Assembly (NCBI GenBank): GCA_963422755.1
Contig: OY730488.1
Source: Dehalococcoidia bacterium
GTDB lineage: Bacteria > Chloroflexota > Dehalococcoidia > Bin125
Reading direction: 5' to 3' (one strand)
Length of the DNA: 64,000 nucleotides
Positions 6,516 to 61,105 of the stretch are shown piece after piece. The notes beneath the pieces were generated by a model that saw only the letters and a list, made by a program, of their open reading frames with translations, had not been told where the DNA came from and ran no database searches. The position numbers and the translations under genes were made by a program. How positions within the stretch are numbered: position 1 is the first letter of the stretch; the number at the start of each line of letters is the position of its first letter.

Positions 6516-8393
<1,878 letters not shown>

Positions 8394-8397
<4 letters not shown>

Positions 8398-8696: not shown

Positions 8697-8739
8697 CGGG
8701 ACGCTCCCTACCGGAACTCTCTGACAGAGTCCGCGCTCG

Positions 8740-8785: not shown

Positions 8786-8924
8786 GCGGCGGCTCGCGCA
8801 TCCTCTTCGAGCGGGCGGGGCGCTCTGTGTTGCGGGATACTCCCACGAGATGCTCCCACATAGGGCTGAGCTATGCGGGCCGAAGCTTGCCGTGTGCGCT
8901 GCCGGGGTAGCGCGCCTCCTGCGG

Positions 8925-9446: not shown

Positions 9447-9557
9447 GCCGCGCCTCCCCTTCCGATGCTCGTGTACTGCTGTGCGCGGACGCTTATTGAC
9501 GCGCGCAAGGGATCACCTGCCAGATTAGCGCAGCCTGAGCGAATCATTGCGTCCATC

Positions 9558-26475: not shown

Positions 26476-27885
26476 TCAGACTGGGTTCCGCCAGCGAGGC
26501 TTCTGCCCTTCCATCAGCACGACGGGCGCGAGGCGGGCGGCGAAGAGCGGACTGACCGCCGGGCTGGGCGCGACACGTGGCTCTGGCTGAGCGCGCTCGT
26601 GCTCCATTGGTTGCGCATCGGGCTGTTGCCCAGCGATCGCGGCAGCGGCTGTGCCCGACTCAGGTGGCAGATGACGCGTCCGCGTCCGTGCGAGCGCCAT
26701 CAGCGCCGTGCCAGCGACGACCACCAGGCCGACGATGTAGAGCGTCTCGCGCCCGCCAATGGCGTCGGCGACCAATCCCCAGACCGGCGCCAGCGCGCCC
26801 TGCAGGCCGAACGCCATGAATGCCCAACTCATCACCCGCCCGAAGTACTCGGGGCGCGTGTTGGTCATCATGATCGACTGGTTGAGCAGCATCACGCTGG
26901 AACGTCCAGCGCCGGCGATCGCTGATACGCCGAGCAGTACGAGGTAGGCGGGCGCCCATGCGGTCAGCCACATCCCGCCCGTGAGCATGAGCGGAGTGAC
27001 GAAGAGCAACGGCCAGGCCAGACGGCCGCTGACGAGTCCAACCAGGAAGAGGTTGACAGGCAGCGAGGCGATCCCCCAGATCAGGTTGACCACGGTCCCT
27101 TCGTTGGGCGAACGGCCGAACTCTTGCTCGAGAATGCCTGGAATCAATGTCTGCATGGCAAAACCGGTGACGATAATCAGCAACCAGAACAACCACAACG
27201 AGCGCAACTGGGGGCGACTGACGATGTAACGCAGCCCGGCCGATAGCTCGACGCGTACCGCCTTGCGCTGATCCTTCGGCGTGGCTGCGCCCGGCGCCTT
27301 GATCATGGTCGTCAGCGGTACCACGACCACGAACAACGCCGCAACCAGCAGGTACAGGATTCCCGAGTTCAAGCCCATCGAGATCACCAGCACCGAAGCC
27401 ATCGCCGGCCCCAAGACCGCCGCAAAGTTGATCGACATTTGCTGCAGCGCGACCGCATTGGGCAGCAAGCGCGGCGGCACCAGTTCAACTACCCAAGCCT
27501 GCCGTGCCGGTCCCATCAGCGAGAACGTCGAGCCCATCAGGAAGGTGGAGGCGAATAACATCGGGATCGTGATCCGGTCGCTCACGATCAGGATGCCCGT
27601 GACGATGATGATCGCGCAGGGGATGATCTGGCTACCGAGCACCAGCGGCTTCTTGCGGTAGCGATCGGCGATCACGCCGCCGAACGGGCCAAAGATCAGC
27701 TGCGCCACCATCCCCGCCTGCGCGAAGCCGGAGGCGGCGTACGAACCAGTGAGCTCATACGCGACGATCGGCACGAGCACGAAGGTCGTCATGAAGGCGG
27801 TCGTTGCCAGCAACGATCCCGCCCAAAGCAAGCGGTACTCGCGAACCGCAAGCGCGGCAAAGGTCACGCTGAGTTGTTGCCCCAT
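26476..27885 (-). CDS. MFS transporter (paralog 1)
   Basis: 469 aa, 12 TM. The N-terminus reads FAALAVREYRLLWAGSLLATTAFMT, and it has a Pro/Ala-rich C-terminal tail. Confidence 0.8.
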   Translation of the reverse strand: MGQQLSVTFAALAVREYRLLWAGSLLATTAFMTTFVLVPIVAYELTGSYAASGFAQAGMVAQLIFGPFGGVIADRYRKKPLVLGSQIIPCAIIIVTGILIVSDRITIPMLFASTFLMGSTFSLMGPARQAWVVELVPPRLLPNAVALQQMSINFAAVLGPAMASVLVISMGLNSGILYLLVAALFVVVVPLTTMIKAPGAATPKDQRKAVRVELSAGLRYIVSRPQLRSLWLFWLLIIVTGFAMQTLIPGILEQEFGRSPNEGTVVNLIWGIASLPVNLFLVGLVSGRLAWPLLFVTPLMLTGGMWLTAWAPAYLVLLGVSAIAGAGRSSVMLLNQSIMMTNTRPEYFGRVMSWAFMAFGLQGALAPVWGLVADAIGGRETLYIVGLVVVAGTALMALARTRTRHLPPESGTAAAAIAGQQPDAQPMEHERAQPEPRVAPSPAVSPLFAARLAPVVLMEGQKPRWRNPV

Positions 27886-27893
27886 GATCGAGC

Positions 27894-29294
27894 CTAATCA
27901 CCGCCTGAAACGGATATCCGACTGGGTTTCTGTCCGCCCATCAGCACGACGGGCGCGACTTGAGCCGTGAAGGCGGGAATCTGCTGTCGGCGCAAGCGCG
28001 GGCTGGATACTCTGGTTCGCTCGGCCTCTTCGTCTGCGGCGGCGGTGCCTCGCTCGGGCGGCAGATGGCGCGTCCGCAGCCAACCGACGGTCATCAACGC
28101 GGTCGCGATCAGGGACACCACGGCGACGACGATCAACGCCTCGCGCCCGCCGAGCCACTCGGCTACGCCGCCCCAGATCGGGGCCATGATCGACTGCATC
28201 CCGTAGCCGAGCATAATGAACGACATCACCCGCCCGAAGTACTCGGCCCGCGAGTTGGTCATCATCAGCGACATGTTGATCAACATCACGCCGGAGGTCG
28301 CGGCGCCCACGGGCAGCGCAAACACGATCAGCAGCTCGAAGCTGGGAGAGATCGCAAACACGATCAGCGTGATCGCCGAGGCCAATCCGAAGACAAGCAG
28401 CAATGGCCAGGCGAAGCGACCGCTCATCAAGCCGGCCAGGGGGATACTAATCAGGACCGAGGCGACACCGAAGGGCAGGAACACGATGAACGCTTCACTG
28501 GCCGCACGGCCAAACTCGCGGTCCATGATCCCCGGCGTGAGCGCGTTCACAGAGAACCCGCAAACGACGATCACCATCCAATACAGCCAGAGCAGCCGCA
28601 GCCGACGATTAGCGCGCAAGTAACTGAAGCCGTGGATCAGATCGCCGAGTGCCGAGCGACGCGGTTGGTCGCCCTCCTGGAGCGGCGGCCTGGTCCAGGG
28701 CAGCGCCGTCGTCAGCGGCACGACGATCAGGAAGAATCCAGCGACCGAGAGATAGAGCGCGCCGGAGGAGACGCCGAAAAAGACGGCGATCGAGCCCAGC
28801 GTGGGGCCAAGCACACGCGCCATGTTCTGGGACATCTGCTGCAGAGCCACGCCGTTGCCCAGCAGGCGGCGCGGGATCAGTTCGCCCAGCCAGGCCTGGC
28901 GAGCCGGACCCATCAGGGCGAAGCCCAGTCCCATCAGCAGGGTGGAGAGGAACAGCAAGGGGATCGTGATCCGATCGGTCACGATCAGCGCGCCCGTGCC
29001 GACGATCAGCAGCGCCGGAAAAATCTGTCCCGCCAGCACGAGCGGTTTCTTGGGGTAGCGGTCAGCGATGACGCCGCCCAGCGGTCCCAGCAAAAACATC
29101 GACAGCCCGCTGCCCATCTGGGCCAGCGTCGAGAGCGCGTAGGAGCCGGTGATCTCGTAGCCCACGATCGGCACGAGCAGGAAGGTGGTCATGAAGGCGG
29201 TCGTGGACAGCAGCGAGCCACCCCAGAGGTAGCGGTAATCGCGGTGCGCGAAGGACTCGAAGGCCCCGCCAACGCGGCTTGGTCGTTGGCTCAT
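27894..29294 (-). CDS. MFS transporter (paralog 2)
   Basis: Clear paralog of 26476-27885 (FAHRDYRYLWGGSLLSTTAFMT). The start may be the upstream ATG at 29348. Confidence 0.8.
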   Translation of the reverse strand: MSQRPSRVGGAFESFAHRDYRYLWGGSLLSTTAFMTTFLLVPIVGYEITGSYALSTLAQMGSGLSMFLLGPLGGVIADRYPKKPLVLAGQIFPALLIVGTGALIVTDRITIPLLFLSTLLMGLGFALMGPARQAWLGELIPRRLLGNGVALQQMSQNMARVLGPTLGSIAVFFGVSSGALYLSVAGFFLIVVPLTTALPWTRPPLQEGDQPRRSALGDLIHGFSYLRANRRLRLLWLYWMVIVVCGFSVNALTPGIMDREFGRAASEAFIVFLPFGVASVLISIPLAGLMSGRFAWPLLLVFGLASAITLIVFAISPSFELLIVFALPVGAATSGVMLINMSLMMTNSRAEYFGRVMSFIMLGYGMQSIMAPIWGGVAEWLGGREALIVVAVVSLIATALMTVGWLRTRHLPPERGTAAADEEAERTRVSSPRLRRQQIPAFTAQVAPVVLMGGQKPSRISVSGGD

Positions 29295-29620
29295 GTGCGC
29301 TGCTCTGTATGCCCGTCCCAAGTTGCCACTTTGGGGTCGACTCGCCAAATCGTCATTGCAAGGTCTCAGCCTAAGCCATGCCCTGAGCGGCTCTGTCGCC
29401 TCTCCTGCGTCCTTCTGGCGAAGGCAGGCGACTCGAGTGATGTCTGGACCTGACCAGATAACCGATTCAGGACACCGCTCAATAGAAGACCCTGGCTTCC
29501 TTCCTCAAGATTGATGGTTATGTTCGCTCGCATTGCGCTAGTGCCTCGCATCTGTGTAAAGTTCCTGCTACTGGACGAAAGGAGATAATCGAATGAAACT
29601 AACCGTCCAGGTTACAATTT

Positions 29621-29656
29621 TGGCGGCGCTTGGCGGCGCTTGGCGGCGCTTGGCGC
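29621..29656. repeat. short tandem repeat: (TGGCGGCGCT) x3 followed by a partial fourth copy (TGGCGC)
   Basis: Three perfect 10-mer copies read directly from the sequence, inside the AT-rich scar region. Confidence 0.7.
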
Positions 29657-30263
29657 AATAGGCATTGCCTGCGGATTCGCTCTTGTAGAACCGGCTCCGA
29701 TCTCGAGCCATCCGCAAGAGGAATGCTTTTCTGTTTTCTCGCTTCCGACGATTCGTGGGGGCAACATTCTTAGCGAAGAGTGTCGTAGCGTTCCTCACAC
29801 CCACCAAAAGGTGGCCACACCTAGAAGCTCGGACCCGAATGGTCTCGATGGTGGTGGACATGGAAGCCGTGATTCTGGCATGCGCTCGCCGGCTTCTGCG
29901 CCTTCTCCGAAATCAACTCCGCGAGACGGCCCAGGTACGCACAGGCATGCGCCAAAGCAGCCGAAACACTCACACCAAACGCCGCAATTCCTATCGTCTA
30001 ATCCACCACTTTGTGGACTACATGGACTAGCCAACTGCGAGGCGGCCCATCAGATCACCAAGGGAGCGCTCATACTTCTTGCAGACAAGCAGGGCGACCA
30101 CGTAGAGGCTGACAAGAGCGGAAACATCTGGATTCACAAGCACAAAAGATGACTAGCAATGTAGTCAGTTCAAGCAGAGAAACATTCAGGTAGCGCGTGG
30201 AACAACCACGTGGCTAGTAGCATGGCGTCCAAGATATGTGAAATAGTCCCTCTCCGCATTTAT

Positions 30264-30302
30264 CAGCTCCCTTCCTCCCGTAACGGTAGGAAGGGAGCTG
30301 AT
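30264..30302. repeat. perfect 13-bp inverted repeat (hairpin) with an internally palindromic 13-nt loop
   Basis: TCAGCTCCCTTCC-tcccgtaacggta-GGAAGGGAGCTGA. It sits about 75 bp beyond the truncation point of the MFS fragment, inside the lower-GC segment. Confidence 0.6.
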
Positions 30303-30376
30303 GGTTAACCTTATCGATAACTATAAACTAGCCGCCATCGCGAGGACGCTGTGGAACCTGACTTCAGCAGCCTTCG

Positions 30377-30685
30377 CTAGCCCAGCGGCTTCTTGCGGTA
30401 GCGGTCGGCGATCACGCCGCCGATCGGCCCCAACAGCGTCTGCGAGACGCCAGAACCCAGCATCGCGATCCCGGCCGCTGCGTAGCTGCCGGTCAGCTCG
30501 TAGGCAACCGAGGGAATCAGCGAGAACGACGTCATGAACGCAGTCACCGAGAGCAGCGAGCCGCCCCACATGAAGCGGAAGTCGCGCACGGCGAACGCCG
30601 CGAACGTCTGTCTCAGTTGTCGCATGCCCGTCGGCTCACTCACACCGCTACCGCAACGCCGTCGAGCACGTAGGCTAGGACGCAT
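30377..30685 (-). pseudogene. truncated MFS transporter (N-terminal 102 codons only), a third paralog
   Basis: FAAFAVRDFRFMWGGSLLSVTAFMT...ADRYRKKPL matches the N-termini of the two intact MFS paralogs, and the rest of the gene is absent. Confidence 0.6.
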
Positions 30686-30863
30686 GAACTATTCGCGCTA
30701 CACGAAATAACTGCCCGCCCATGGACGGCGGCCACCAACCGCTCGCTCTGTCGCGTAGCGCTCAGAGCGCGGAGTCGCTATCCTGTTTGGGGTTCACACG
30801 CGCTGCTACCCCGTACGTGTGCGCCGACAGCAGGCAAGACCAACTGGAAAAGGAAGTGATCCC

Positions 30864-34677: not shown

Positions 34678-35160
34678 CTAGGCGTGCTCGAGGATCGCCG
34701 CGGCCGAGGTCAGCGCGCAGGTGCCCGGGTTCTCCTCGGTCTGGAAGGCCTGGACGACGCCGTCGTTGACCAGCATCGCGAAGCGGGTGCAGCGAAAGCC
34801 CAGCCCCAGCCCCGAGAGGTCGAGGCCGATATCCAGCGCACGGGTGATATCGCCCGAGCCATCAGCCAGCATCGTGATATGCCCAGCCCCATGCGCGGCG
34901 TTCCAGGCCTCGAGCACGAAGATGTCGTTGGTCGACATGCAGATCGTCTGCTCGATGCCGGCGGCGTTCAGCTGGTCAGCCGAGGTGGCGAAGGTGGGCA
35001 GGTGGTCGTTGGTGCAGGTCGGTGTGAACGCGCCGGGCACGCCGAAGATCACAGTCTTCTTGTCACCCACCAGCTCGCGCAGGTTGGCGGGGCCGGGTCG
35101 TCCACCCGACATCACGGTTCCCTGAGCGTCAGGCAGGGTGTCTCCAGTAGTCGGCGGCAT
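34678..35160 (-). CDS. peroxiredoxin (Prx5-like, AhpC/TSA family)
   Basis: KKTVIFGVPGAFTPTCTNDHLP carries the peroxidatic Cys motif PGAFTPTC. Start is at MPPTTGDTLPD. Confidence 0.8.
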   Translation of the reverse strand: MPPTTGDTLPDAQGTVMSGGRPGPANLRELVGDKKTVIFGVPGAFTPTCTNDHLPTFATSADQLNAAGIEQTICMSTNDIFVLEAWNAAHGAGHITMLADGSGDITRALDIGLDLSGLGLGFRCTRFAMLVNDGVVQAFQTEENPGTCALTSAAAILEHA

Positions 35161-35340
35161 GGCGGCGCTCCTTGTATCTTCCTTGTGTCTCATGTGAGCG
35201 AGGCAAACAAATGCTGTCGCACAGCTTAGCCCACCGAGTCTCAACCAGACGCGTCCATGGTATGAGTGACCAGAGACCTTGGCACCGGTTCCCAGCTAAC
35301 CGAAAATGAGCGCACGCCCCGCGAGGACGAAAGGGTTGAG

Positions 35341-36180
35341 ATGAAACGCACAAACCTATGGATAGGGGCTCTGGCTCTGCTCGCGATCATCGCCAGCGCC
35401 AGCTGGGCGACGGCGCACGTCCTCAGCGGTGACGCGGAAGTACGGGTCGCCGCGAGGCGACTTGCGGATGGCAAAACCGAGTTTGCGCTGCAGCAGCGCG
35501 TCGACGGGCAATGGAGCGAACGCATGCTGCCGAGCGCGCGCAAGCTGCCAGCGGAGCCCGCTGTTGGCAAATGGCTGCATTCATCCGCGCTGACGCTCGA
35601 AACCACCACCCAAGCAGAGACATCCGCGCTCATTGTCCGCAAAATAGGGCAGGACTACTACGACAGCGGACGGATTGCAACGAACATCAAACGCTGGAGT
35701 TACGGCAATGAAGGCGCATATCTCGAATCCTCGGTCAGCATCCGCGCTGATGGCGAACACGCCCTCGGAGTAACGCCGCTCGAGCTCCGCATCGAGTGCA
35801 ACGGCTCCACGGGCGGGCTTGAAATTGGCATCGTTGGTAACAAAAACGAACAGCTTCCACCAAGGATCGAAGATGGATCCGGAAGCTACTTCGTCTCGTA
35901 TCAATACCAATTCCCCGCTGATACGGGCAACCGTGGACTGACGACGATCAAGGACGCTCGATGGATGCTGATTCAATGGAGAGACCAAGAGAGCACAGAA
36001 AAAGTAGAACTGCGTACGATGGTAACTCTCATCTTCTACGAGAACCTCAAGGAAGCGGAGTCCCTGGAAATCACGGTTACGGGCGCTGGGAATAAAACCA
36101 AGACCTCCACGTTCAGCCTCGACGGCGCCTTCGAGACGCCGATCCAACCGAATCTCGACCGCTGCGGCCAGTACCACTAA
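35341..36180 (+). CDS. hypothetical secreted protein
   Basis: Signal peptide MKRTNLWIGALALLAIIASASWATAHV. No recognizable family. Confidence 0.5.
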   Translation: MKRTNLWIGALALLAIIASASWATAHVLSGDAEVRVAARRLADGKTEFALQQRVDGQWSERMLPSARKLPAEPAVGKWLHSSALTLETTTQAETSALIVRKIGQDYYDSGRIATNIKRWSYGNEGAYLESSVSIRADGEHALGVTPLELRIECNGSTGGLEIGIVGNKNEQLPPRIEDGSGSYFVSYQYQFPADTGNRGLTTIKDARWMLIQWRDQESTEKVELRTMVTLIFYENLKEAESLEITVTGAGNKTKTSTFSLDGAFETPIQPNLDRCGQYH

Positions 36181-36276: not shown

Positions 36277-37056
36277 ATGGCCATCGACCGACTGACTGAG
36301 CGCGTGGCGTTGATTACGGGGGCAGGGTCCGGGATTGGACGGGCCTCCGCCCTGCGCATGGCCTCGGAGGGCGCGGCCGTGATGTGCGCCGACCTCAACG
36401 CCGAGGGCGCGCAGACGACCGCCGCGCAGATCGCCGAACACGGTGGTCGCTCCGCCACAATGGAGCTCGACGTGACCTCCGAAGACGCCGTCCAGGACGC
36501 GCTCGCTCAGACGGTCGCGGTGCTCGGCGGGCTGGACGTGATCTTCAACAACGCCGGCATCGGCGGCGCGCAGTACTCCTGGGACCAAACCATCGACGTC
36601 AACTTGACCGGGGTCTACTACGGCACGTATCACGGCGCGGCGGCGCTGGCCGAGCGTGGCGGCGGATCGATCATCAACACCGCCTCGATCGCCGGACTCA
36701 ACGGACTGGTCAGCACCGCCTCGACGCGCGATCCACAGCTGCCGGTGGAACCCGGCGCGGGCGCGTACGTCGCCGCCAAGCACGGTGTCGTGGGGATCAC
36801 GCGGCAGTTCGCCGTCACCTACGGACCGCGCGGCGTGCGCGTCAACGCGATCTGCCCTGGCTACATCCATACGCCGATGACCGCCGGCATCCGTGAGATC
36901 GACGGCGCGGAAGAGTTCCTCGCCGGCCTCCATCCGATGGGTCGACTGGGGCAACCGGAGGAGATCGCCGCCGCCGCCGCTTTCCTGGCCTCCGACGATG
37001 CCAGCTTCGTCAACGGCGTCGCGCTACCGGTCGACGGCGGCTACACGGCTCGATAG
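36277..37056 (+). CDS. SDR-family oxidoreductase
   Basis: Contains TGAGSGIGRA (the TGxxxGIG dinucleotide-binding motif), NNAG, and the catalytic YVAAK (YxxxK). Confidence 0.85.
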   Translation: MAIDRLTERVALITGAGSGIGRASALRMASEGAAVMCADLNAEGAQTTAAQIAEHGGRSATMELDVTSEDAVQDALAQTVAVLGGLDVIFNNAGIGGAQYSWDQTIDVNLTGVYYGTYHGAAALAERGGGSIINTASIAGLNGLVSTASTRDPQLPVEPGAGAYVAAKHGVVGITRQFAVTYGPRGVRVNAICPGYIHTPMTAGIREIDGAEEFLAGLHPMGRLGQPEEIAAAAAFLASDDASFVNGVALPVDGGYTAR

Positions 37057-46895: not shown

Positions 46896-47747
46896 TCAAG
46901 CGCTCCCGCAATCGATGCTGCGCACACAGCGGAAGCCGGTGTTGCTGGTGGCGCTGTCCGGCGTCAGCGCCAACCGGGCGGCGGGGCGGTAGCGCAGGCA
47001 GTAGCTCTCGTGGCACAGGAAGCTGCCGCCCTTGAGTACCCGCAGGTCGCCATCCGGCGGTCCAACTGGATCCATCGCCTCGGTCTGATCGTGATAGACG
47101 TCGAACCAGTCTGCGCACCACTCCCAGACGTTGCCGGTGGTGTTGTACAGCCCGTATCCATTGGGCGGAAAGTGGTCGACGGGGCAGGTGCCGTACCAGC
47201 CGTCGTCCTGCAAGTTGTCAGTTGGGAACACACCCTGCCAGACATTCATCCGGTGTCGGCCGCCGGGCGTCAGCTCGTCGCCCCAGGGGAACGCGGCCGA
47301 CTCTAGTCCACCGCGCGCAGCACGCTCCCACTGCGCCTCGGTCGGCAGATTGAGGCCAGCCCACTGTGCGTAGGCGCTGGAGTCGTGCCAGCTCACCTGG
47401 ACGACGGGATGATTGAGTCGCTGCTCGATGCTGCTCTGTGGGCCTTCGGGCTGTCGCCATGAGGCGCCTTCGACTGCGCGCCACCAGGGTGCGTCGGCGG
47501 CAGCTTGGGTCGGCGGAAAGTCATCGGGCAACAGGCCAGCGAACACGAACGACCAACCGCTCCGCTCCGACTCGGTCCGATAGCCGGTCGCCGCAACGAA
47601 GGCGGCAAAGGCAGTGTTCGACACTGCGCAGCTGCTGATCGCGAAGGCCGACAGCGAGATCGTCCGCAGCGGCCCTTCGCCGTCGCCGGGATACGCGTAC
47701 CGATCAGTGGACCCCATGGTGAATGCGCCTGCCGGGATGACGCTCAT
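46896..47747 (-). CDS. formylglycine-generating enzyme (FGE/SUMF1 family)
   Basis: MSVIPAGAFTMGSTD...WHDSSAYAQWAGLNLPTEAQWERAARGG...GNVWEWCADWF are classic FGE blocks. An alternative upstream start lies at 47885. Confidence 0.8.
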   Translation of the reverse strand: MSVIPAGAFTMGSTDRYAYPGDGEGPLRTISLSAFAISSCAVSNTAFAAFVAATGYRTESERSGWSFVFAGLLPDDFPPTQAAADAPWWRAVEGASWRQPEGPQSSIEQRLNHPVVQVSWHDSSAYAQWAGLNLPTEAQWERAARGGLESAAFPWGDELTPGGRHRMNVWQGVFPTDNLQDDGWYGTCPVDHFPPNGYGLYNTTGNVWEWCADWFDVYHDQTEAMDPVGPPDGDLRVLKGGSFLCHESYCLRYRPAARLALTPDSATSNTGFRCVRSIDCGSA

Positions 47748-47902
47748 AGCCAGAGCTGCTCTTCCTCCGCCTTCGGCCTGCCCAGCTGTCGGAGATAAGG
47801 CAACGGGCGCCGCGGAGACATCGACGCTCGCCGAGCGCTGAACCTGGTCGACAGAGGGAGCGCAACAATCACTCATGATCAGCACTCATGGTCGGCCTGC
47901 GC

Positions 47903-50191
47903 TCACTGCTGCGCCATCAACTCCCGGAAGGCATTGCGAGCGGCCTCGTAGGCCGGTCCCGACTTCGGATACGGCGTCACCGCAATCTCCACTGCGTGAA
48001 TCAACCCCTGGAACTCGAACGGCGCTGTGTACGACTCTGTCACTGGCGACTTACGGTCAGCGCCGATATCGGCACCGCCTCGTGATCCGAATCCGCCCCG
48101 CACGAGGAACGGCACGTCGCCCTCGCCGACACGCTCGCCGTTCAGCCGCAGCGTTACGTGGCCAGGCGCAGACGGCGCTTCGCCGTCCATACTGACGCCC
48201 ACTGTGCAGCGACCGTCGGGCAGCTCGACGTTGGCAGCAATCTGGGTGACCGCTGTGAACGCGTTGTAGTCGAAGCGCAGCTGGTTGTCCTGGATGTAGA
48301 AGCTGAATCCACCCATATTCGAGCCACGCGCGAAGATCACGCCGTCGCCACGGACTTCCGCCACGGCGTCGCGCTCGATCTCCGCTTCCAGGGTCCATGC
48401 ACCCAGACCGATCGCAGGCGCGATCTCACCAGGAATGTGCGACACCGGCGGGGTGTAGCGATAGCGCAAGCCCTGGTGCGGTCCACCGGGTCGCTGCGAG
48501 GGACCGCCGAGCTGGAAGCTGCGATCGTCGAGTGGCAGCACACCGTAGCGGCCCGCCTCGACCCACCAGCGGTCGATCAATCGGCGTAGACGCTCCGGTT
48601 CCGCGTCGGCGAGGTTATGCGACTCCGAGAAGTCCTCGGCGACGTGGTACAGCTCCCATTCATCATCCGACCATGGGTCGTTCTTCTGGTGCCGCGTGAC
48701 AGCCTTCCAGCCGTCGACCCAGATGCCGCGGTGTCCCAGCATCTCGAAGTATTGAGCTTCCTTGGCCGTGTCGGCGTGTGGATCCTCAAACGCGTACGCG
48801 AAACTCGTGCCGCTGACGGGCATCTGTCGCTGACCGGCGTACTCCTCAGGCGCGGTGGCCTGCACCGATTCCAGGACAGTGGGCAAGACGTCGGAGACGT
48901 GGTGGAACTGTCGGCGGAAGCTGCCGCGATCGCTGATGCGGTCGGGCCAGTGGACGATCAGCGGCACGCGGACGCCGCCGCCGTGCGTGTTCTGCTTGTA
49001 CCACTTGAGCGGCGTGTTGCCGACCTGCGCCCAGCCCCACGGGTAGTTGGGCGAGCTTTTCGGGCTGCCGATCAGGTGCAGCCGCGACTGCGCCTCATCA
49101 ATATCGTCGAGCAGCGGCTGGCCGTAACGGGCGGAGTCGGAGACGCCCTGCGGCCCGCCTTCCTGCGAGGCGCCGTTGTCGGCCATCAGCATCAGAATCG
49201 TGTTGTCGAGCTGTCCCGACTCCTCCAGATATCCAACCAGCCGACCGATCTGCTCGTCGGTGTGTGTGAGGAAGCCGGCGAACGCCTCCTGGAACGTAGC
49301 GAGGAATCGTTTCTGGTTCGCTGAGTACTCGTCCCACGCTTTGACGCCGGTGTTGCGAGGCGCGAGTTCCGTGCCCTCTGGAATCACGCCCAGTTCGAGC
49401 TGCCGTGCGTACCATTCCCGGCGCACTTCGTCCCAGCCCTGATCGAACTGGCCGCGATACCGCTCGATGTAGTCCGCTGGGACCTGATGCGGTGAGTGCG
49501 TAGCGCCCGTGGCGAAGTAGAGGAAGAATGGCTGCCCTGGATAGACCGACTGGTGATCGCGCAGGAATGCGGTCGACTGATCGACCATATCTTCGGTGAA
49601 GTGATACCCCTCCTCGGGTGCGCGCGGCGGATCGATCAGGTGGTTGTCGTAGACCAGCTCGGGGTAGAACTGGTCCGTCTCGCCCGAGAGGAAGCCGTAG
49701 TAGCGATCGAACCCGCGTTGCAACGGCCAGTCGTGGAACGGTCCGGCCTGCGAACAGGTCTCGGACGGATTGAGGTGCCACTTGCCGACTGCGAACGTGG
49801 CGTAGTGCTCGTCGCGGAGGATCTCGGCCATCGTCGACGCATTGCGGCTCATCGCGCCGCGCATGTTCGGATAGCCAGAGTCATAGCTGGCAATCGACCG
49901 CATCCCCACCGAGTGGTGGTTGCGCCCCGTCAACAGCGAGGCGCGAGTCGGCGAGCAGAGCGCCGTAACGTGAAAGTTCGTGAAGCGCAGGCCGTTAGCC
50001 GCGAGCCGATCGATGTTCGGCGTGGCGATCGTCGAGCCGTAGCAGCCCAGGTGCGAGAATCCGGTGTCGTCGAAGAGGATGATGACGACGTTCGGCCGAT
50101 CCTGCGGCGCCGTTGGCAGCGGCGGCCACCACGGTTCGGAATCGCGGAACGTGCGCCCAATCACCCCGCCGAAGGCTTCATCCTGGGTCAT
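47903..50191 (-). CDS. arylsulfatase (paralog) with a C-terminal extension
   Basis: Close paralog of 44611-46884 with the same N-terminus (GRTFRDSEPWWPPLPTAPQDRPNV) and the same C/SxPxR motif. From the ATG at 50191 (MTQDEAFGGVIG) it is about 762 aa. Confidence 0.85.
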   Translation of the reverse strand: MTQDEAFGGVIGRTFRDSEPWWPPLPTAPQDRPNVVIILFDDTGFSHLGCYGSTIATPNIDRLAANGLRFTNFHVTALCSPTRASLLTGRNHHSVGMRSIASYDSGYPNMRGAMSRNASTMAEILRDEHYATFAVGKWHLNPSETCSQAGPFHDWPLQRGFDRYYGFLSGETDQFYPELVYDNHLIDPPRAPEEGYHFTEDMVDQSTAFLRDHQSVYPGQPFFLYFATGATHSPHQVPADYIERYRGQFDQGWDEVRREWYARQLELGVIPEGTELAPRNTGVKAWDEYSANQKRFLATFQEAFAGFLTHTDEQIGRLVGYLEESGQLDNTILMLMADNGASQEGGPQGVSDSARYGQPLLDDIDEAQSRLHLIGSPKSSPNYPWGWAQVGNTPLKWYKQNTHGGGVRVPLIVHWPDRISDRGSFRRQFHHVSDVLPTVLESVQATAPEEYAGQRQMPVSGTSFAYAFEDPHADTAKEAQYFEMLGHRGIWVDGWKAVTRHQKNDPWSDDEWELYHVAEDFSESHNLADAEPERLRRLIDRWWVEAGRYGVLPLDDRSFQLGGPSQRPGGPHQGLRYRYTPPVSHIPGEIAPAIGLGAWTLEAEIERDAVAEVRGDGVIFARGSNMGGFSFYIQDNQLRFDYNAFTAVTQIAANVELPDGRCTVGVSMDGEAPSAPGHVTLRLNGERVGEGDVPFLVRGGFGSRGGADIGADRKSPVTESYTAPFEFQGLIHAVEIAVTPYPKSGPAYEAARNAFRELMAQQ

Positions 50192-50365
50192 CGTCCACTC
50201 CCTGTCCGATCCAGATGCCTGTCGCACAAGATAGAGATGCCACAGCAGACTGTCGTCACAGGAGCGCTCGACGAGAGCTCAGCTGTGCGCCACGTGCACA
50301 CCAGGCTCGCTAGCATTCCTGCAATGACCGCCACAGGGCCGTGACTCTGCGACTCCGGAGGACAG

Positions 50366-51646
50366 GTGATGAGCGACAGCGATACCTCTGGCATCTTCTC
50401 GGGAGTCCGCGTCCTGGAATTTGGGCTCTTTGTGGCCGGGCCATACGCAGGCGAGCTGCTCGCGCACGGCGGCGCTGATATCATCAAGGTCGAGCCGGTC
50501 ACCGGCGACGCCACGCGCTTCAACAGCACGATCGTCCCCGGCGAAGGACGTCACTACATCATCAAAGCGCGCGGCAAACGCGGTGCACCCATCAATCTGG
50601 GGCATCCCGACGGTCTGGCGCTCGCCCGACGGCTCGCGCTGCGCAGCGACGTGGTGATCTCCAACATGCGACCCGGAAACCTGGAACGTCTGGGGCTGGA
50701 CTACGACACCCTCAGCGCAGAGAACGAACGGATTATCGTGGCCGAGATTTCGGCGCTGGGCGAGCACGGCCCGCAGGGAATGCATCTGGGTGCGGATCCG
50801 CAGGCCGCGGCGGCATCGGGACTGGCGCTGTCCACTTCCGACTTCAGCGGCGACGAGCCGCGCATGGTTGACGGATATCTATGCGATTTCATGGCCGGCA
50901 TGACGCTCGCTTTCGGGATCGCCAGCGCGTTGTACCGACGTGAACAGAGCGGCACAGGCCAGCGCGTCTACACGACGCTCTATCAGGCCGGCCTGTCGTT
51001 GCAACATGCGACCGCCAACCTGATCGACGCAGTCGACGGCTGGAAGCGCGACTTCGCCACACAGATGCAGTCGAAACCGCTCCGCCCGCGTGACGCCCAG
51101 CGCTATCGCCGCGAGCAGGTTGCGCTCCTCGCGGCTGGACTCTACGAAACCCGCGACGGCCGCTGGATCACGCTGGGCGCGTCGCCGGCGTCGTTCCGAC
51201 GCCTGCTCGACACGCTGGAGATCGCTGACCCCAGCGCACACGACCCGGCCTGGCGCATGCCCGATGACCCACGTGAACATTTCAGCTCGCTGCGTGAGCG
51301 GATTCGCGCGATCGTGAGCGATTGGGACGGCGAGGCGCTACGCGATCGGATGCAGTCGGTCGGCGTCCCGTGCGCGCTGATGAGCTCGCTCGAAGAAGCG
51401 CTGCTGAGCGAACATGCGCGGGCGAACGATTTCGTCCACCGCTTCGACCACCGCGTCGTCGGACCGACCATGCTGCCACAGGCGCCGCTCACGTTCAGCC
51501 GCGACCACTACCGCGCCGCCGAATCGACGCCCGCGTTCGGCGAACACTTGCGAGACGTGCTCGCCGAACTGGGTCTCGATGACACTGATATCGACGAGCT
51601 GATCCGTCGCGGGGCGGTCGCCGAGACGTTGCCCAAGCCAAGCTGA
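50366..51646 (+). CDS. family III CoA-transferase (CaiB/BaiF-like)
   Basis: GVRVLEFGLFVAGPYAGELLAHGGADIIKVEP is the canonical CoA-transferase III N-terminal fingerprint; 426 aa. Confidence 0.85.
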   Translation: MMSDSDTSGIFSGVRVLEFGLFVAGPYAGELLAHGGADIIKVEPVTGDATRFNSTIVPGEGRHYIIKARGKRGAPINLGHPDGLALARRLALRSDVVISNMRPGNLERLGLDYDTLSAENERIIVAEISALGEHGPQGMHLGADPQAAAASGLALSTSDFSGDEPRMVDGYLCDFMAGMTLAFGIASALYRREQSGTGQRVYTTLYQAGLSLQHATANLIDAVDGWKRDFATQMQSKPLRPRDAQRYRREQVALLAAGLYETRDGRWITLGASPASFRRLLDTLEIADPSAHDPAWRMPDDPREHFSSLRERIRAIVSDWDGEALRDRMQSVGVPCALMSSLEEALLSEHARANDFVHRFDHRVVGPTMLPQAPLTFSRDHYRAAESTPAFGEHLRDVLAELGLDDTDIDELIRRGAVAETLPKPS

Positions 51647-51730: not shown

Positions 51731-52803
51731 TCACTCCGCCTGACTCCGCTGGTGACGATACAGCGCCCGCGCATCCAGGATGTGCTGGGGACACTGCTCC
51801 TGCTCCACCTGTTGCGCCACCGGTCGCGTGCGAGGCTCCGCCACGGTATACGTTTCCTCGCGGACCCGAGTTTCTTTCTCCACGTACGGTTCGACTCGAT
51901 ATTTCGTCACCGACACGGTGTATTCTTCCTCACGGTAGCGAGTCTCGGTTTCCTTGTACTCCTCAGTGCGGTACCGCGTCACCGTTGTGGTGTAGGGAAT
52001 TCGGCGCGTTCGCTCTTCTGGCGCGGTGTACGACACTTCCCGGTAGCGAGTCTCCATCGCGATGTACGACTCAGTGACCTGACGCTGCACCTGAACCGGT
52101 ACCTTGCGCACACGGTCCGCCGCAACCCGGCGGTACTCCGTCACCATCACCGTATAGGGAACCCGAACCGTATAGCTCTGCCGATACGGACCGGCGATGC
52201 CGGAGACCCAGCGATACCTTGTCTCGGTACGGTAGCGAGTCCGGGAGACCTGCACAGGGACGCTCACCCACGTGCGGTAGCCCTCATCACGATACACCGT
52301 TTCCGTGACGGTACGCGTGCGATACCGAGTGACCGGTACCTGGTACGGCTCACGGCGCGTTCGCGGTACTTGAACCGTATACTTCTCGTCGCGATAAAAG
52401 GTGACCGTGTCTTGATACGGCACCTCGCGGGTGCGCGGGACTTGCACAGTGTACGGTACCCGGCGCGTTCGCGGTTCCTGTTCGGTGTACGGAATCTTCC
52501 GAGTCTTCACGACATCGACCGTGTACTCGACATCCCGAGTCTTCTCGACGGTCTCGAAGTATTCCTCTTTCACGACCTGAGATACCAGTTTGGTGGGGCA
52601 AGTCGGACCGCAGACGTTCAGCGTATGACGGAGCGTCTTGGTCGTATCGCGCTTGCGCCACTTCTCTGCGTCAGTGTCCCACTTGTAGCGCGGTTCCTTG
52701 TAGTCAAAGGTGACTTCGATTGTTCGACAATTACTTGGATAAGCAAGTTCAAGAGCCAGCCGCTGAGCAGCAGCCACATCCGCGTTAGAGTGGACGATTG
52801 CCG
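51731..52803 (-). CDS. tandem-repeat protein of about 20 imperfect 12-residue Tyr/Thr/Val/Arg/Glu-rich repeats; downstream portion of a gene whose frame is split by a poly-C tract
   Basis: It translates as ...YTVQVPRTREVPYQDTVTFYRDEKYTVQVPRTRREPYQVPVTRYRTRT...YTVSVTKYRVEPYVEKETRVREETYTVAEPRTRP... GC3 on the minus strand is about 80% in the sampled stretch, which supports coding. The in-frame upstream part of the track ORF (to 53026) looks like non-coding read-through. Confidence 0.5.
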
Positions 52804-52832
52804 CCCCCCCCCCCCCCCCCCCCCCCCCCTTC
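52804..52832. repeat. homopolymeric tract of 29 consecutive C (poly-G on the coding strand; encodes a Gly run)
   Basis: Read directly from the sequence. It lies at the junction of two minus-strand ORFs that are in frames differing by 1. Confidence 0.95.
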
Positions 52833-53282
52833 GGACAAACGTTCGCTTGTGTACTCCTCGTACACTGCGACGATATCGGCCAAATTGCGCTCCGCCTTGT
52901 CCTGCGCCTCAGCTCGTTCCGCCGCGTGCGCCGCCGGGCCCGCTTCATAGTCGCGGTGAGCAACAATATGTTTGGCCATCGGACCGCACGTGTCAAGGAT
53001 TGCAGCGGATGGATAGCCTGACGCATCAGGACCAGACAGCTTCGAAACGCACCAGCTGCTAAGCTTATGAGGGCCGTGCCCTCCAGGATGGATCACTGGT
53101 GGAACCGGAGGTGTGACTAAATGATTAATTGCGCTCCAGATTGCGTCCACACCACCTACTTCGTGGATTATGACACCGCATGCGCTGCCAATGACGATGA
53201 CTATCGCACCCCCTGTGGCCCAGTGGTTGGCAACGCTACCGGGAGCGCTGTGGCAAGCCCTTTCGTAAGGAGTATACCGCAT
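52833..53282 (-). CDS. upstream (N-terminal) portion of the repeat-protein gene in a different frame; likely start at 52979 (MAKHIVAHRDYEAGPAAHAAERAEAQDKAERNLADIVAVYEEYTSERLSE-Gn)
   Basis: ORF 52785-53282 ends in GGGGGGGGGGGNRPL just past the tract. A 1-nt shorter tract would fuse it with 51731-52803. Whether the start is at 53282 or 52979 is uncertain. Confidence 0.35.
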
Positions 53283-53800
53283 GCCGCACTGACTGCTCCA
53301 CCTGAGAGGGATTTTAGGCGTCCCTCCAGCTCTGCTATTGTCTCTGGACTATACGAAGGATTAGGCACAGTGTCCGTTGCCTGGTTCTCAGCGCTCGGTG
53401 GGTGTGCTGATACGGAATTCGCAACTATAGCCAAAGGGGCAGTGATGAGCAGCGGCAAGATCGCCACACGGAGTAAGTGTCGAGATGCTGTCTGAAGCTT
53501 CGTCACTAGCTTTGTCAGTACCCAATTCATTGTCGGCCAGACAAATGCTATATTCAGCATACACGCGAGAGCCCAACCCAACCCCGGGTACAGCCCATGG
53601 TCGGCAGTGACGTCGGCACCGACGCTGATCATCCCACCGAGCGGAGCCCAGTTGAGGACAAACCCGACCCACTGAGTCTTCGTGTTGGTCCTCGTATATG
53701 TCAAAATCCAGTTGGACCAGGCGTCGATAGCCGCCCAGATACCGCCCAACAGGGCCACCACCCCCTTTCCGAGTCCGCCCAACGCGGTCATGACAAGCAT
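53201..53800 (-). CDS. hypothetical small membrane protein in the lower-GC island
   Basis: GGAG RBS then the ATG at 53800. The protein is MLVMTALGGLGKGVVALLGGIWAAIDAW... with about four predicted TM helices, and the local GC is about 52-55%. The ORF's 3' end overlaps the previous feature. Confidence 0.45.
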   Translation of the reverse strand: MLVMTALGGLGKGVVALLGGIWAAIDAWSNWILTYTRTNTKTQWVGFVLNWAPLGGMISVGADVTADHGLYPGLGWALACMLNIAFVWPTMNWVLTKLVTKLQTASRHLLRVAILPLLITAPLAIVANSVSAHPPSAENQATDTVPNPSYSPETIAELEGRLKSLSGGAVSAACGILLTKGLATALPVALPTTGPQGVR

Positions 53801-54013
53801 CTCCAACTCCTCTCTCAGCCAGCAACGCACCAGCTTGCCGCAGAGACTAGCTGATGGCTGCTCTGCGCTGGCGCTGCAAAGAGCTGATGGATTGCGACGC
53901 GGCGAAAGCAGTGATCGAGCGCGCGGTCGCCGCAAATGATTTGGCTACGGTGCGGCGTCTCAGCTCAGCGCTTATGCGCAGTGCAAGTCATCCCATCAAT
54001 CATCCCGGTCCCC

Positions 54014-54655
54014 TCAATCTGCCCGCCGCTCGCCGAAGCGATCCCAGTGCAGGATTTCGTTCAACGGTCGGCGGCGGATCGGCCCGAAGTTGCCGGTCGG
54101 CCAGCCGAGTGGAATCAAGACCATCGGCAGGATGTGGTCGGGCAGGTTGAGCGCCTCGCGCGCCCGGTCGCGGTTGTCGCCGGAGAAGGCGAGCGTGGTC
54201 GGCACGCTGCCGACGCTGAGCGCCCGCGCGGCCAACAATAGATTCTGGACCGCTCCCCACACTTCCGTCGCGGCCTGCGCGCCCTCGTTGAACGTGCCGC
54301 GCGGCGCGCGGCCCAGGTCGGCGCAGGCGATCACGATGGCGGGCGCTTCGTGTAGGTGGTGCATCTGGTGCTCGACGGCGGCCAGGAACCGCTCGCGACG
54401 GCCCGGATCGACGTGTGGGTTGGCGGCCTCGCGGTTGTGCTCAAGATAGGCCGAGACGCCGATGCGGTTCAGCTCGGCGAGCTGCTGCTTCACCGCCGGG
54501 TCGCGCACGACGACCCAGTGGCGAGCCTGGCGGTTGGAACCGCTGGGCCCGAGATGCGCCGCCTCGATCAACTGCATCAGCGTCTCTGACGGAATCGGCT
54601 CGTCCGAGTAGCGCCGCATTGCGCGGGCCGTCTGGACCACATCAAAGAACTCCAT
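54014..54655 (-). CDS. nitroreductase-family protein
   Basis: MEFFDVVQTARAMRRYSDEPIPSETLMQLIEAAHLGPSGSNRQARHWVVV is the nitroreductase fold signature. Confidence 0.75.
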   Translation of the reverse strand: MEFFDVVQTARAMRRYSDEPIPSETLMQLIEAAHLGPSGSNRQARHWVVVRDPAVKQQLAELNRIGVSAYLEHNREAANPHVDPGRRERFLAAVEHQMHHLHEAPAIVIACADLGRAPRGTFNEGAQAATEVWGAVQNLLLAARALSVGSVPTTLAFSGDNRDRAREALNLPDHILPMVLIPLGWPTGNFGPIRRRPLNEILHWDRFGERRAD

Positions 54656-59295: not shown

Positions 59296-60291
59296 GTGGC
59301 AGTGATGAGTAAACGTGAGCGCGTGCGCGCGACGATCGCCGGCGAGCCTGTGGACCGTGCGCCGGCCTCGTTGTGGGGACACGACTTTCTGCGTGAGTGG
59401 AGCAACGACGAACTCGTCGGCGCCACCTGCGAACAGTACGAGGCGTACGATTGGGACTTCATCAAGATCAATCCGCGCTGGACGATGTTCCCAGAGGCGT
59501 GGGGGGCGGTCTACTCGCCTCCCGCTGATCAATCGAACCCAACCATGGTGCGCTCGGCTCTCCACGAGCTGGACGAACTACACGACGTGTCCTCAGTACA
59601 CGCCGAACGAGGAGTGTTCGGCGAACACATCGAATCCACCCGACTGGTCGTCGACCGCACCAAAGGTGAGGTGGACGTGGTGCAAACGGTCTTCTCACCT
59701 ATGGCCGTCGTGGGACTGATGTTCGGGCATCCCCGCGCCTTCAAGCAGGCGGCGCGGGAGGCCCCAGCGGCGGTGCATACCGCCATCGCCCGGGTGACCG
59801 AAACGATCATCAACTACAGCCGCGCCAACCTGAACGCAGGCGCGTCGGGCGTGTTCTATGCGCCGCTGCAGTGGGCCAGTCACGACAACGCCACGCCTGA
59901 CTTCTACCGCGAGTTTGGACGCCCCTACGACCTACAGGTGCTGGACGCGATCCGCGATGCCGAGTTCAACATCCTCCACGTCTGTCATACCAACAACATG
60001 CTGGCGGACGTGATGGACTACCCCGTGCACGCGATCAATTGGGATGATCGCGACCCGACCAACGCCAGCCTGTCCGACGTCTGGGCGCAGACGGATACAG
60101 CTGTGATGGGCGGCGTGAGCCGAACCGATCTCGGGGAACTGAGCGCTGCAGAGATCCAGGCGCAAGCTGCCGAGGCGGCGGGCGTCGGCAACACCAGGGT
60201 GCTCGTCAGCGGCGGCTGTTCGATCCCACCGCACACGCCACACGAGAATCGCGCCGCTGTCGCAACGGGCGCGCGCGGTGACGCAAGTTAA
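59296..60291 (+). CDS. uroporphyrinogen-decarboxylase (URO-D) family protein, methyltransferase/decarboxylase-like
   Basis: GAAGGAGG RBS lies 5 nt before the GTG at 59296. The protein (MAVMSKRERVRATIAGEPVDRAPASLWGHDF...) shows the URO-D fold. Confidence 0.65.
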   Translation: MAVMSKRERVRATIAGEPVDRAPASLWGHDFLREWSNDELVGATCEQYEAYDWDFIKINPRWTMFPEAWGAVYSPPADQSNPTMVRSALHELDELHDVSSVHAERGVFGEHIESTRLVVDRTKGEVDVVQTVFSPMAVVGLMFGHPRAFKQAAREAPAAVHTAIARVTETIINYSRANLNAGASGVFYAPLQWASHDNATPDFYREFGRPYDLQVLDAIRDAEFNILHVCHTNNMLADVMDYPVHAINWDDRDPTNASLSDVWAQTDTAVMGGVSRTDLGELSAAEIQAQAAEAAGVGNTRVLVSGGCSIPPHTPHENRAAVATGARGDAS

Positions 60292-60301
60292 GGAACGGCA
60301 C

Positions 60302-61105
60302 ATGGGAGCGCTCGACGGAAAAGTTGCGCTGATCACCGGCGCGGCATCGGGGATCGGCCTGGCAACCGCGCAGCTCTACGCTCGTGAAGGCGCGCGGGTG
60401 GCGATGGTCGACCGCAACGCCGACGGTGTCCAGGAAGCGGCGCGTGCGCTCGGCGACTCCGCAGTGGGAATCAGCGCCGATGTGACCAGCGAGTCCGATG
60501 TGGAGGCAATGGTGGCTTCCTGCATCGAGCGCTTCGGGCGGCTCGACATCGCCTTCAACAACGCCGGTGTGGCAGGCGTGACACCGATCCATGAACACAC
60601 CCTCGAACAGTTCCAACGTGTGATCAACGTCTGCCTGACTGGGGTGTTTCTCTGTATCAAGCACGAATCTCGGCAGCTCCTCGATCAGGGCGAGGGCGGA
60701 TCGATCATCAACACAGCGAGCATCAACGCGACGCAGGCCACGGCCGGACTCGCGGCCTATTGCTCGGCCAAGGGCGGCGTGACGATGCTCACCAAGGTGT
60801 CTGCGCTGGAGCTGGGGCCGCACGGCATCCGCGTCAACGCCATCGGACCCGGGCACACGAAAACTCCGCTGACCCTTCGCGCCCGCGACGTCCCTGGATT
60901 CGACGAGGCGATGATCAGCGCGACGCCGATGGGCCGACTGGGAGAACCGGAAGATATCGCGCAGATGGCACTCTATCTGGGCAGCGACGCCAGTCAATGG
61001 GTGTCGGGACAGCTCTTCTACGTCGACGGCGGGATCACAGTCAACGAACTGCCGCCGAACTTTAACCCGCTCGATTCGCGTCTGGCGGAGCCGCGCGGCG
61101 GATAG
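60302..61105 (+). CDS. SDR-family oxidoreductase (pair A, copy 1)
   Basis: Opens MGALDGKVALITGAASGIG and has NNAG and YCSAK. Confidence 0.85.
   Translation: MGALDGKVALITGAASGIGLATAQLYAREGARVAMVDRNADGVQEAARALGDSAVGISADVTSESDVEAMVASCIERFGRLDIAFNNAGVAGVTPIHEHTLEQFQRVINVCLTGVFLCIKHESRQLLDQGEGGSIINTASINATQATAGLAAYCSAKGGVTMLTKVSALELGPHGIRVNAIGPGHTKTPLTLRARDVPGFDEAMISATPMGRLGEPEDIAQMALYLGSDASQWVSGQLFYVDGGITVNELPPNFNPLDSRLAEPRGG

Follow-up and report, generated by a model that had tools for sequence, protein, structure and literature searches.

The window analysed here is a 64,000-nt stretch of contig OY730488.1 (assembly GCA_963422755.1) from a Dehalococcoidia bacterium. On its minus strand, between 53800 and 51731, lies what comparison with intact homologues indicates to be a single gene that is now split over three reading frames, owing to a 1-nt deletion and a poly-G tract of 26 nt. 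The gene combines an N-terminal hydrophobic region with a C-terminal tandem-repeat half, and the latter is predicted to fold as a giant β-hairpin. The window copy is likely to be off or decaying. Most probably, it is a pseudogene in early decay, derived from a gene that we infer was originally switched by slippage. Early decay after silencing by the tract would fit the pattern observed: lesions outside the tract occur in all three strains of the species, the ratio of non-synonymous to synonymous differences per site (pN/pS) is raised and the GC content at third codon positions (GC3) is low.

One gene in three reading frames

Three open reading frames (ORFs) overlap on the minus strand of this region, at 53935-53201, 53282-52785 (165 aa) and 53026-51731 (431 aa). 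The initial annotation, made from the DNA alone, had described a 200-aa membrane protein and a separate repeat protein, the latter probably translated. A protein search over 5.8 billion sequences returned six matches in all. Two of these, P0002 (569 aa, from a Chloroflexi metagenome-assembled genome, MAG) and P0003 (681 aa), are intact and cover 95% of a fused ORF2+ORF3 query at 55-57% identity. Both also carry the AHPPSEEN motif and the signal-anchor that are seen at the end of the first ORF.

We repaired the window gene by adding one base at 53217 and taking one G from the tract, which gave a product of 689 residues. In the alignment, the repaired protein is collinear with P0003 over the full length. 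Because this product aligns end to end with an intact homologue, the "membrane protein" and the "repeat protein" are best read as one gene, with the former as its N-terminal part. The C-terminal part of the 431-aa ORF is genuine, whereas its first ~65 codons, which precede the poly-G tract, are read through in the wrong frame. In the repeat arms of the family, the ratio of non-synonymous to synonymous substitution rates (dN/dS) is 0.16-0.39, which indicates purifying selection; the family is therefore a genuine protein-coding one.

An explanation by two independent genes, one for a 200-aa membrane protein and one for a 431-aa repeat protein, is hardly tenable. Two long ORFs are indeed present as written, and gene callers split the locus likewise, but the homologues unite both parts in a single frame, together with the 165-aa ORF between them; moreover, no homologue matches the first ~65 codons of the 431-aa ORF, which precede the tract and are in the wrong frame. 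The homologues thus represent one gene of ~690 codons. In the window this gene bears the 1-nt deletion and an out-of-frame tract, its sister strains bear lesions as well, and selection on it is relaxed, so that a copy that is off or decaying is more likely than one expressed as written. The locus illustrates how one homopolymer and one indel make one gene resemble an island of two to three novel genes in long-read MAGs.

The poly-G tract and the lesions outside it

The tract was absent from the initial annotation, although its mention of a "fused ORF" hints at it. The tract is an expansion of a few linker codons. At 26 nt it is out of frame and needs -1 or +2; lengths of G25 or G28 would fuse the second and third frame segments through a linker of Gly8-9. 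Elsewhere in the 64 kb no homopolymer exceeds 6 nt, and six 6-nt runs of G or C were counted against ~67 expected by composition, which makes them about ten times rarer than expected.

Around the locus, two further Mb-scale assemblies of the same species, L001 (ERZ21742402) and L016 (ERZ21742370), match the window at 98.2% and 98.5% identity. L016 shares the 1-nt deletion at 53217 and, like the window, has no other lesion outside the tract; its tract is G10, which is in frame and yields a 410-aa product (P0037). From 53258 to 51756, L016 and the window are base-for-base identical save for G10 versus G26. In L001, position 53217 is intact; a C>T substitution creates a TAG nonsense codon at window position 52904, and the tract is G7, out of frame by a missing base (+1). 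In L011 (OZ242034.1), from a species ~80% identical, 53217 is intact and the tract is the only lesion, at G9, again out of frame and in need of +1. The intact homologues have an intact 53217 and no lesion, with G5, no tract or G3 at this point, all in frame. Tract length changes faster than point substitutions accumulate, and it toggles the frame of the C-terminal half.

Several features of contingency genes are therefore present in these sequences: a coding homopolymer of at least ~7-8 nt, length polymorphism with conserved flanks, and a frame that is switched by tract length. An ORF that is otherwise intact was found only in L011; in the window and L016 it is broken by the 53217 deletion, and in L001 by the TAG at 52904.

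Long-read consensus is weakest at homopolymers, the contig names of the related assemblies point to long-read assemblers, G7 and G9 are each one nucleotide short of an in-frame length, and L001 has an isolated 1-nt frameshift in an adh_short gene. These points would suit a sequencing or assembly artefact, in which the real gene is intact and both the tract and the deletion are homopolymer or consensus errors. We consider this quite improbable, and artefact alone is unlikely to account for the tract, because a G-run occurs at this exact codon in four assemblies (already as G5 in a short-read MAG), the 53217 deletion lies outside any long homopolymer (AA to A) and recurs in a second assembly, and the L001 lesion is a nonsense substitution. 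Furthermore, the spread of G26, G10 and G7 goes well beyond typical miscalls; no further run above 6 nt occurs in the window, and no second broken gene was seen there over the 21 kb compared.

Two other explanations were rejected. A poly-G read tail, as arises in two-colour Illumina chemistry, does not fit, since both flanks continue the gene and the run recurs at the same codon in the four assemblies. Programmed -1 frameshifting at 53217 is contradicted by the lack of a canonical slippery heptamer and by the sister strain, in which the extra base is simply present.

Early decay or a live switch

Between the window and L001, the repeat gene differs by 12 synonymous and 11 non-synonymous changes and one nonsense change, corresponding to a pN/pS of 0.31. 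In 15 neighbouring genes the same comparison gave 171 synonymous and 53 non-synonymous differences, with a pN/pS of 0.10 (Fisher p = 0.02). Each of the three strains of the species has a lesion outside the tract, and these lesions are of two independent kinds. The intact homologues have a GC3 of 0.79-0.89, and the window copy lies below them. In the proposed sequence of events, linker codons would have expanded into a hypermutable poly-G tract in the lineage of the window, so that tract length would set whether fibre and anchor share a frame. With G26 out of frame, and with the 53217 deletion additionally cutting off the anchor, the copy would be off.

A number of observations weigh against this reading. 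In all three strains the C-terminal frame remains open for 349 codons, and a pN/pS of 0.31 is well under 1, so that any decay must be recent. With the frameshift at 53217, an ATG remains at 53282 ahead of a hydrophobic stretch, and it is possible, to judge from the sequence, that the G10 strain makes a split yet functional "anchor + fibre" product. The far N-terminal module is dispensable, as P0002 shows. The second 1-nt frameshift in L001 falls in a housekeeping-type gene, adh_short. Finally, homopolymers of 7-26 nt are error-prone in long-read assemblies; a length of 26 nt in a long-read consensus is unreliable, and the frame state at the tract is therefore uncertain.

The locus may instead be a live contingency locus, although we regard this as rather unlikely. 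Slipped-strand mispairing at the tract would then turn the fibre half on and off, or transcriptional slippage would partly bypass the tract; the symbiont population would be a mix of fibre-bearing and fibre-less cells, and the 53217 shift would have done no more than divide the gene between a membrane protein and an anchor-plus-fibre protein with its own start. In keeping with such a switch, G10 and G26 differ without substitutions over ~1.5 kb of flanks and G10 is in frame, the tract of L011 is its only lesion, and the tract sits in a linker, where in-frame lengths add only glycines. The C-terminal ORF is also intact in all strains, and a hydrophobic segment follows the ATG at 53282. Against it, the full-length frame is interrupted in every strain of the species, by a frameshift in two and by a nonsense codon in the third, and pN/pS is raised. 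Ribosome-binding spacing before the ATG at 53282 is poor, the finding that three of four long tracts are out of frame is indistinguishable from chance, and G26 is far beyond the known lengths of switching tracts. Early decay of a formerly switched gene thus remains the preferred reading.

A predicted giant β-hairpin

The repeat stretch spans 248 residues, 73% of which are R, T, V, E or Y. Autocorrelation of residue identity peaks at 0.30-0.34 at lags of 12, 24 and 36, with enrichment at every even lag, as expected of unbroken β-strand alternation. The ~20 imperfect 12-residue repeats of the initial annotation are borne out by these lags: we count ~20-22 units of twelve residues, in agreement with its consensus (Y-T-V-x-V-P-R-T-R-x-x-P).

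AlphaFold 2 (AF2) was applied to the protein encoded by 51734-52780, numbered from Asp1 at 52778-52780. The model has a mean predicted local distance difference test score (pLDDT) of 72 and consists of a helix (residues 2-13), a short strand pair (18-35 and 40-57), a long strand pair (63-194 and 197-328) and a second helix (332-348). The repeat arms form two antiparallel strands of 132 residues each, with pLDDT values of 73-85, and the model of P0003 shows the same topology. The elongated β-rich structure suggested earlier for the repeat protein is in line with these models, which predict an elongated all-β C-terminal half. This half would form one antiparallel ribbon with two strands (2 x 131 residues), ~40 nm long if extended.

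The spacing of conserved residues bears on the hairpin from outside the model. Two invariant Cys-Pro motifs bracket the repeats, and the central turn contains Gly. The distances from the two Cys-Pro motifs to the turn are 131 and 131 in the window protein, P0002 and P0003, 131 and 132 in P0004, and 155 and 155 in L011, which has two extra 12-residue repeats per arm. Such matched growth of the arms is what a paired hairpin requires. In addition, Cys18 and Cys57, at the base of the small predicted hairpin, are both present in the window protein and in P0009, and both absent in P0002, P0003, P0004 and L011.

There are also points that speak against the fold. The AF2 models rest on 4-5 sequences and have predicted template modelling (pTM) scores of 0.22-0.30, and AlphaFold can over-predict hairpins for alternating repeats. 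In the register defined by the cysteines, Tyr faces Arg or Lys of the other arm every six residues (17-19 pairs) and the Thr-rich faces coincide, but the aromatic-cation pair count is equally high at register +2, so that the pairing demonstrates that the phases are compatible and does not single out one register. Arm deletions are unequal, at 54 and 24 residues, in P0007, a truncated fragment of 182 aa that is probably itself a remnant.

Structure comparison of the model gave no significant fold match, neither to the stem hairpin of β-barrel pore-forming toxins nor to their oligomerisation/cap domain, and no solved structure resembles it. Its sole weak neighbours are long-hairpin barrel formers (the phi29 tail knob, lysenin, the membrane attack complex and anthrax protective antigen). 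Together with the strict two-residue alternation and the Thr-rich face, which would suit sheet stacking, they would favour a repeat region that is not a monomeric hairpin and instead builds a multi-subunit β-barrel tube, a cross-β (amyloid-like) assembly or a trimeric fibre. An oligomeric arrangement of this kind appears rather unlikely, and we keep the monomeric hairpin as the working model.

The surface or extracytoplasmic association proposed in the initial annotation is plausible from the signal-anchor and the conserved, covarying cysteine pairs. Because of these disulfide pairs and the signal-anchor, the C-terminal half would lie outside the cytoplasm, as an envelope fibre or spacer tethered to the membrane. 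The intact protein would run from the hydrophobic N-terminal region and signal-anchor through AHPPSEEN, a four-cysteine region, a long helix and a short linker to the all-β half. The repeats would fold back as one ribbon whose base is closed by a disulfide between the two Cys-Pro motifs, with a Tyr-Arg/Lys ladder on one face and a Thr-rich surface on the other. A core-less, charged Tyr/Thr/Val ribbon of ~40 nm could act as a rigid projecting fibre or spacer and is a candidate structural element, shield or adhesin.

Weaker matches in other phyla are signal-peptide proteins with equal numbers of two complementary repeat types around a centre, such as the seven "CYR" and seven "VPYxC" units of P0011. 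P0005, P0006, P0011, P0012, P0015, P0016 and P0018 have twelve-residue repeats of the VPYT and T(K/R)YR(D/T)E types with regular cysteines that are symmetric about the centre, and belong to no Pfam family. To judge from their sequences, these distant proteins may represent a broader, as yet undescribed class of hairpin proteins with disulfide ladders. We did not retain the mirror symmetry of the cysteines in P0006, P0011 and P0018 as strong support, since it follows largely trivially from periodic spacing; only the equality of repeat counts on the two sides, such as 7+7 in P0011, is suggestive, as weak support.

Layout of the locus

The coordinates of the gene and of its parts are collected in Table 1. 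In the first frame segment, hydrophobic stretches cover residues 1-25 and 108-132, and the motifs LGKGV.ALL and AHPPSxEN are common to P0003, the L002 copies and L011. A database search with this segment returned itself (P0159) as the sole match. The N-terminus of P0002 is the same element as the strongest hydrophobic segment of the window gene and reads MTQRTVAIGLAVVALLVGVIAGGVLGTGVASA-HPPSEEN. This segment is likely a signal peptide or signal-anchor, which may be cleaved at the site given in the table.

Upstream of the gene, an 18-nt near-tandem duplication was observed at 53991-54025 (53989-54025), of which 13 nt (53989-54001) are absent from both sister strains; it could affect a promoter. 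No convincing sigma-70-like promoter was found in the upstream intergenic region, and no convincing terminator at the locus.

Table 1. Positions in the window of the disrupted gene, its frame segments, lesions and predicted structural elements
Feature	Position	Strand	Remarks
Upstream intergenic region, from the nitroreductase stop to the gene start	53801..54013	minus	near-tandem duplication and indel
Whole disrupted gene	51731..53800	minus	~689 codons when repaired; ATG at 53800; TGA at 51731-51733; gene call in sister L001 begins at the equivalent ATG
Frame segment 1: N-terminal hydrophobic region and signal-anchor	53201..53800	minus	premature TAG at 53201-53203, caused by the upstream 1-nt deletion
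Strongest hydrophobic segment, HLLRVAILPLLITAPLAIVANSVSA, directly followed by AHPPSAEN	53405..53479	minus	Kyte-Doolittle 2.29; cleavage-like site VSA/H
1-nt deletion site (CCAACAGG to CCACAGG, frame -1)	53217..53218	minus	A present in L001; frame continuous in all homologues; deletion common to the independent assembly L016
Frame segment 2: four conserved cysteines, two hydrophobic stretches, long predicted helix (HRDYEAGPAAHAAERAEAQDKAERNLADIVAVYEEY)	52830..53216	minus	from alignment; AF2 helix 268-319 in P0003, pLDDT 67-91
Poly-G tract, 26 nt on the coding strand (C26 on the plus strand)	52804..52829	minus	Tandem Repeats Finder and regular-expression scans; at inter-domain linker
Frame segment 3: predicted helix, small β-hairpin, giant repeat hairpin, C-terminal helix, stop	51731..52803	minus	AF2 on window 51734-52780
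Small predicted hairpin	52610..52729	minus	Cys18 (52727-52729) and Cys57 (52610-52612) at base; 18+57 = 35+40 = 75
Giant predicted β-hairpin	51791..52600	minus	Cys61-Pro at 52595-52600; turn Ile195-Ala196 at 52193-52198; Cys330-Pro at 51788-51793; ~22 twelve-residue repeats

Rarity, genomic context and origin of the family

The family is rare. Among 1.84 billion cluster representatives there are 31 matches at E<=1e-3, four of which reach E<=1e-30, and it is present in 2 of 185,579 species genomes; no relatives were found in scans of IMG/VR or JGI metagenomes. Pfam hmmscan (E<=10), NCBIfam, PHROGs, PADLOC and PDB sequence profiles gave only chance-level matches below the curated cut-offs, and the earlier statement that the repeat protein belongs to no described family therefore holds. 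All close members come from sponge-metagenome assemblies of Chloroflexota or Dehalococcoidia.

The region from 51731 to 53935 has a GC content of 59.1%, against a mean of 64.7% (standard deviation 1.7%) over intervals of 2.2 kb, and ranks fourth lowest among the 1236 such intervals in the window. Local values over 300 nt are 54-64%. The low-GC patch noticed initially is thus real and close to the lowest of its size, but the background is 64.7% and not the 68% given there. The dip is concentrated at third codon positions of the repeat gene, where GC3 is 0.56-0.69, as compared to 0.79-0.86 in the neighbouring arylsulfatase, CoA-transferase, nitroreductase, glyoxalase and dehalogenase genes.

Members of the family occur in three genomic contexts. 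In the window, L001 and L016 the gene lies between nitroreductase and CoA-transferase genes; in L002 and L011 it lies between adh_short and AhpC. The third context, in L006-L009, is a lower-GC block beside genes for an N6/N4-methyltransferase-HNH, an AAA_25 helicase and a BT4734-like primase; P0003 and P0004 are the members that adjoin these mobile-element-type genes. In two related genomes the upstream block (URO-D through glyoxalase-nitroreductase) is kept and is followed by a MaoC dehydratase in place of the gene, and the window gene therefore stands at a synteny break. Horizontal acquisition, as had been suggested from the compositional shift, is supported, because GC3 is atypical, the contexts are three and include a mobile element, and synteny breaks at the insertion point. 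At the insertion site in the window, no flanking direct or inverted repeats, tRNA or mobility genes were found.

Further observations concern the surroundings of family members. A block of ~8.7 kb in L008, flanked by two N6/N4-methyltransferase-HNH genes (325-1833 and 7429-8691), has a GC content of 60-64%, compared with 68-70% in the host DNA beside it. P0004, a homologue truncated at its N-terminus, is encoded in this block, which is probably an integrated element. In L002, two tandem partial copies of the N-terminal membrane/signal module (8635-9132 and 9181-9675) immediately precede the gene for the intact P0002, and one of them contains AHPPSEANQSTDTVPHP and then a stop. These partial copies suggest, from sequence, repeated recombination at the 5' end of family genes.

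Two loci also carry secreted proteins of other kinds. In the window, the junction of AhpC (34678-35244) with adh_short (36277-37056), the exact site of the repeat gene in L002 and L011, is occupied by a plus-strand gene (35266-36180) for a 304-aa signal-peptide protein; its GC3 is 0.69 and that of its flanks 0.86. The junction looks like a hotspot with a different secreted cargo in each species. In L018, a related 2.44-Mb MAG, an unrelated 682-aa secreted protein with no Pfam match (9020-11068) is encoded two genes downstream of the orthologous nitroreductase and is followed by a DUF559 endonuclease-like gene; the nitroreductase neighbourhood therefore carries another variable surface-protein cargo. 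Mobile carriage, and gain and loss at variable secreted-protein loci, fit an accessory surface trait under fluctuating selection, which is the kind of gene where homopolymer switches evolve.

Comparison with known systems

Contingency loci are known as phase-variable surface-protein genes of Neisseria, Haemophilus, Campylobacter and Helicobacter, whose switching tracts are typically 8-13 nt long. The present locus resembles them in that a poly-G/C tract lies inside a predicted envelope-protein gene, varies in length between near-identical genomes and toggles the frame, while homopolymers are avoided elsewhere. It differs in the length of the tract, which at 26 nt is two to three times the typical value, and in its position at an internal domain linker and not near the 5' end. 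In addition, the host is an uncultivated Chloroflexota sponge symbiont known here from consensus assemblies, and all strains of the species also have lesions outside the tract.

In the insect endosymbionts Buchnera and Blochmannia, frameshifts at poly(A) tracts are rescued by transcriptional slippage. There too, a long homopolymer breaks the frame in a host-restricted symbiont and polymerase infidelity might partly bypass the break. Their runs, however, consist of A or T and affect many genes of AT-rich reduced genomes, whereas here a single G-run occurs in a genome of 65% GC that is otherwise homopolymer-free.

Single-layer β structures include the central sheet of Borrelia OspA, the E-G5 rods of Staphylococcus SasG and the stalk of the bovine ultralong third complementarity-determining region of the heavy chain (CDR-H3). 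Like the predicted ribbon, they are elongated, lack a hydrophobic core, are rich in Thr, Val, Tyr, Lys and Glu and have cross-strand pairs; the antibody stalk also has a disulfide-bonded region and an aromatic ladder. They consist of two to three strands of 10-25 residues or of strings of small domains, whereas the prediction here is one hairpin of 2 x 131-155 residues. No sequence or significant structural similarity to these single-layer sheet or stalk proteins was found. The longest hairpins in solved structures are the stem hairpins of β-barrel pore formers, and the anthrax protective antigen pore (6psn/3j9c) and lysenin (5ec5) were the only such neighbours returned for the model, non-significantly.

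The closest functional analogy in the literature is the YTV-domain proteins (PF07639), cysteine-rich proteins that were recovered from proteinaceous cell-wall preparations of Planctomycetales and are reportedly restricted to them (PMC8567305). Both groups have short Tyr-Thr-Val-centred repeats and conserved cysteines, and both are presumed to be structural components of the envelope. In the family described here the cysteines number only 6-8, the 12-residue period is strict and the layout is symmetric, with two arms. Membership in PF07639 was rejected, as hmmscan gave no match at E<=10 for the window ORF, P0002, P0003, P0005 or P0006.

Other observations on the window and its strains

A second low-GC patch (~59.5%) lies at ~28150-30760. 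It covers an MFS-transporter paralogue (27894-29348), which stands beside a similar one (26476-27885), and a poorly coding stretch (29450-30760) with only a 170-aa ORF.

Divergence between the window and L001 is patchy. From 47230 to 51229, across the arylsulfatase and CoA-transferase genes, there is one substitution in 4 kb, against 2-5% elsewhere, which indicates recent homologous recombination or a mosaic consensus of co-existing strains. The absence of window-L001 differences in the repeat region was accordingly dismissed as a sign of special conservation, since divergence is patchy over the whole 21 kb. In L001, one base is missing at position 2271 (window 60539) from the adh_short gene that is intact in the window (60143-61102); the gene is thereby split into 178 and 106 aa, and the break may be a second pseudogene or an assembly error.

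Implications

Sponge symbionts are thought to tune their surface for life in a phagocytic host and for phage resistance. To our knowledge, phase variation has so far not been described in this uncultivated phylum. The boldest interpretation of the data is a novel envelope fibre, consisting of one ribbon of 2 x 131-155 residues (~40-50 nm) with a one-disulfide base, a Tyr-Arg/Lys zip and paired repeat growth, joined to a long poly-G toggle that would be the first contingency locus described in the phylum. We put this combination forward tentatively, as possible yet doubtful. If true, the ribbon would be by far the longest natural β-hairpin, core-less and with its length set by paired repeat additions, and it would be relevant to protein design and to the stability of single-layer β-sheets, and as a possible molecular spacer in Dehalococcoidia, whose envelopes are poorly known. 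An envelope protein that moves horizontally, has a hypermutable switch and is being lost in one species would offer a testable example.

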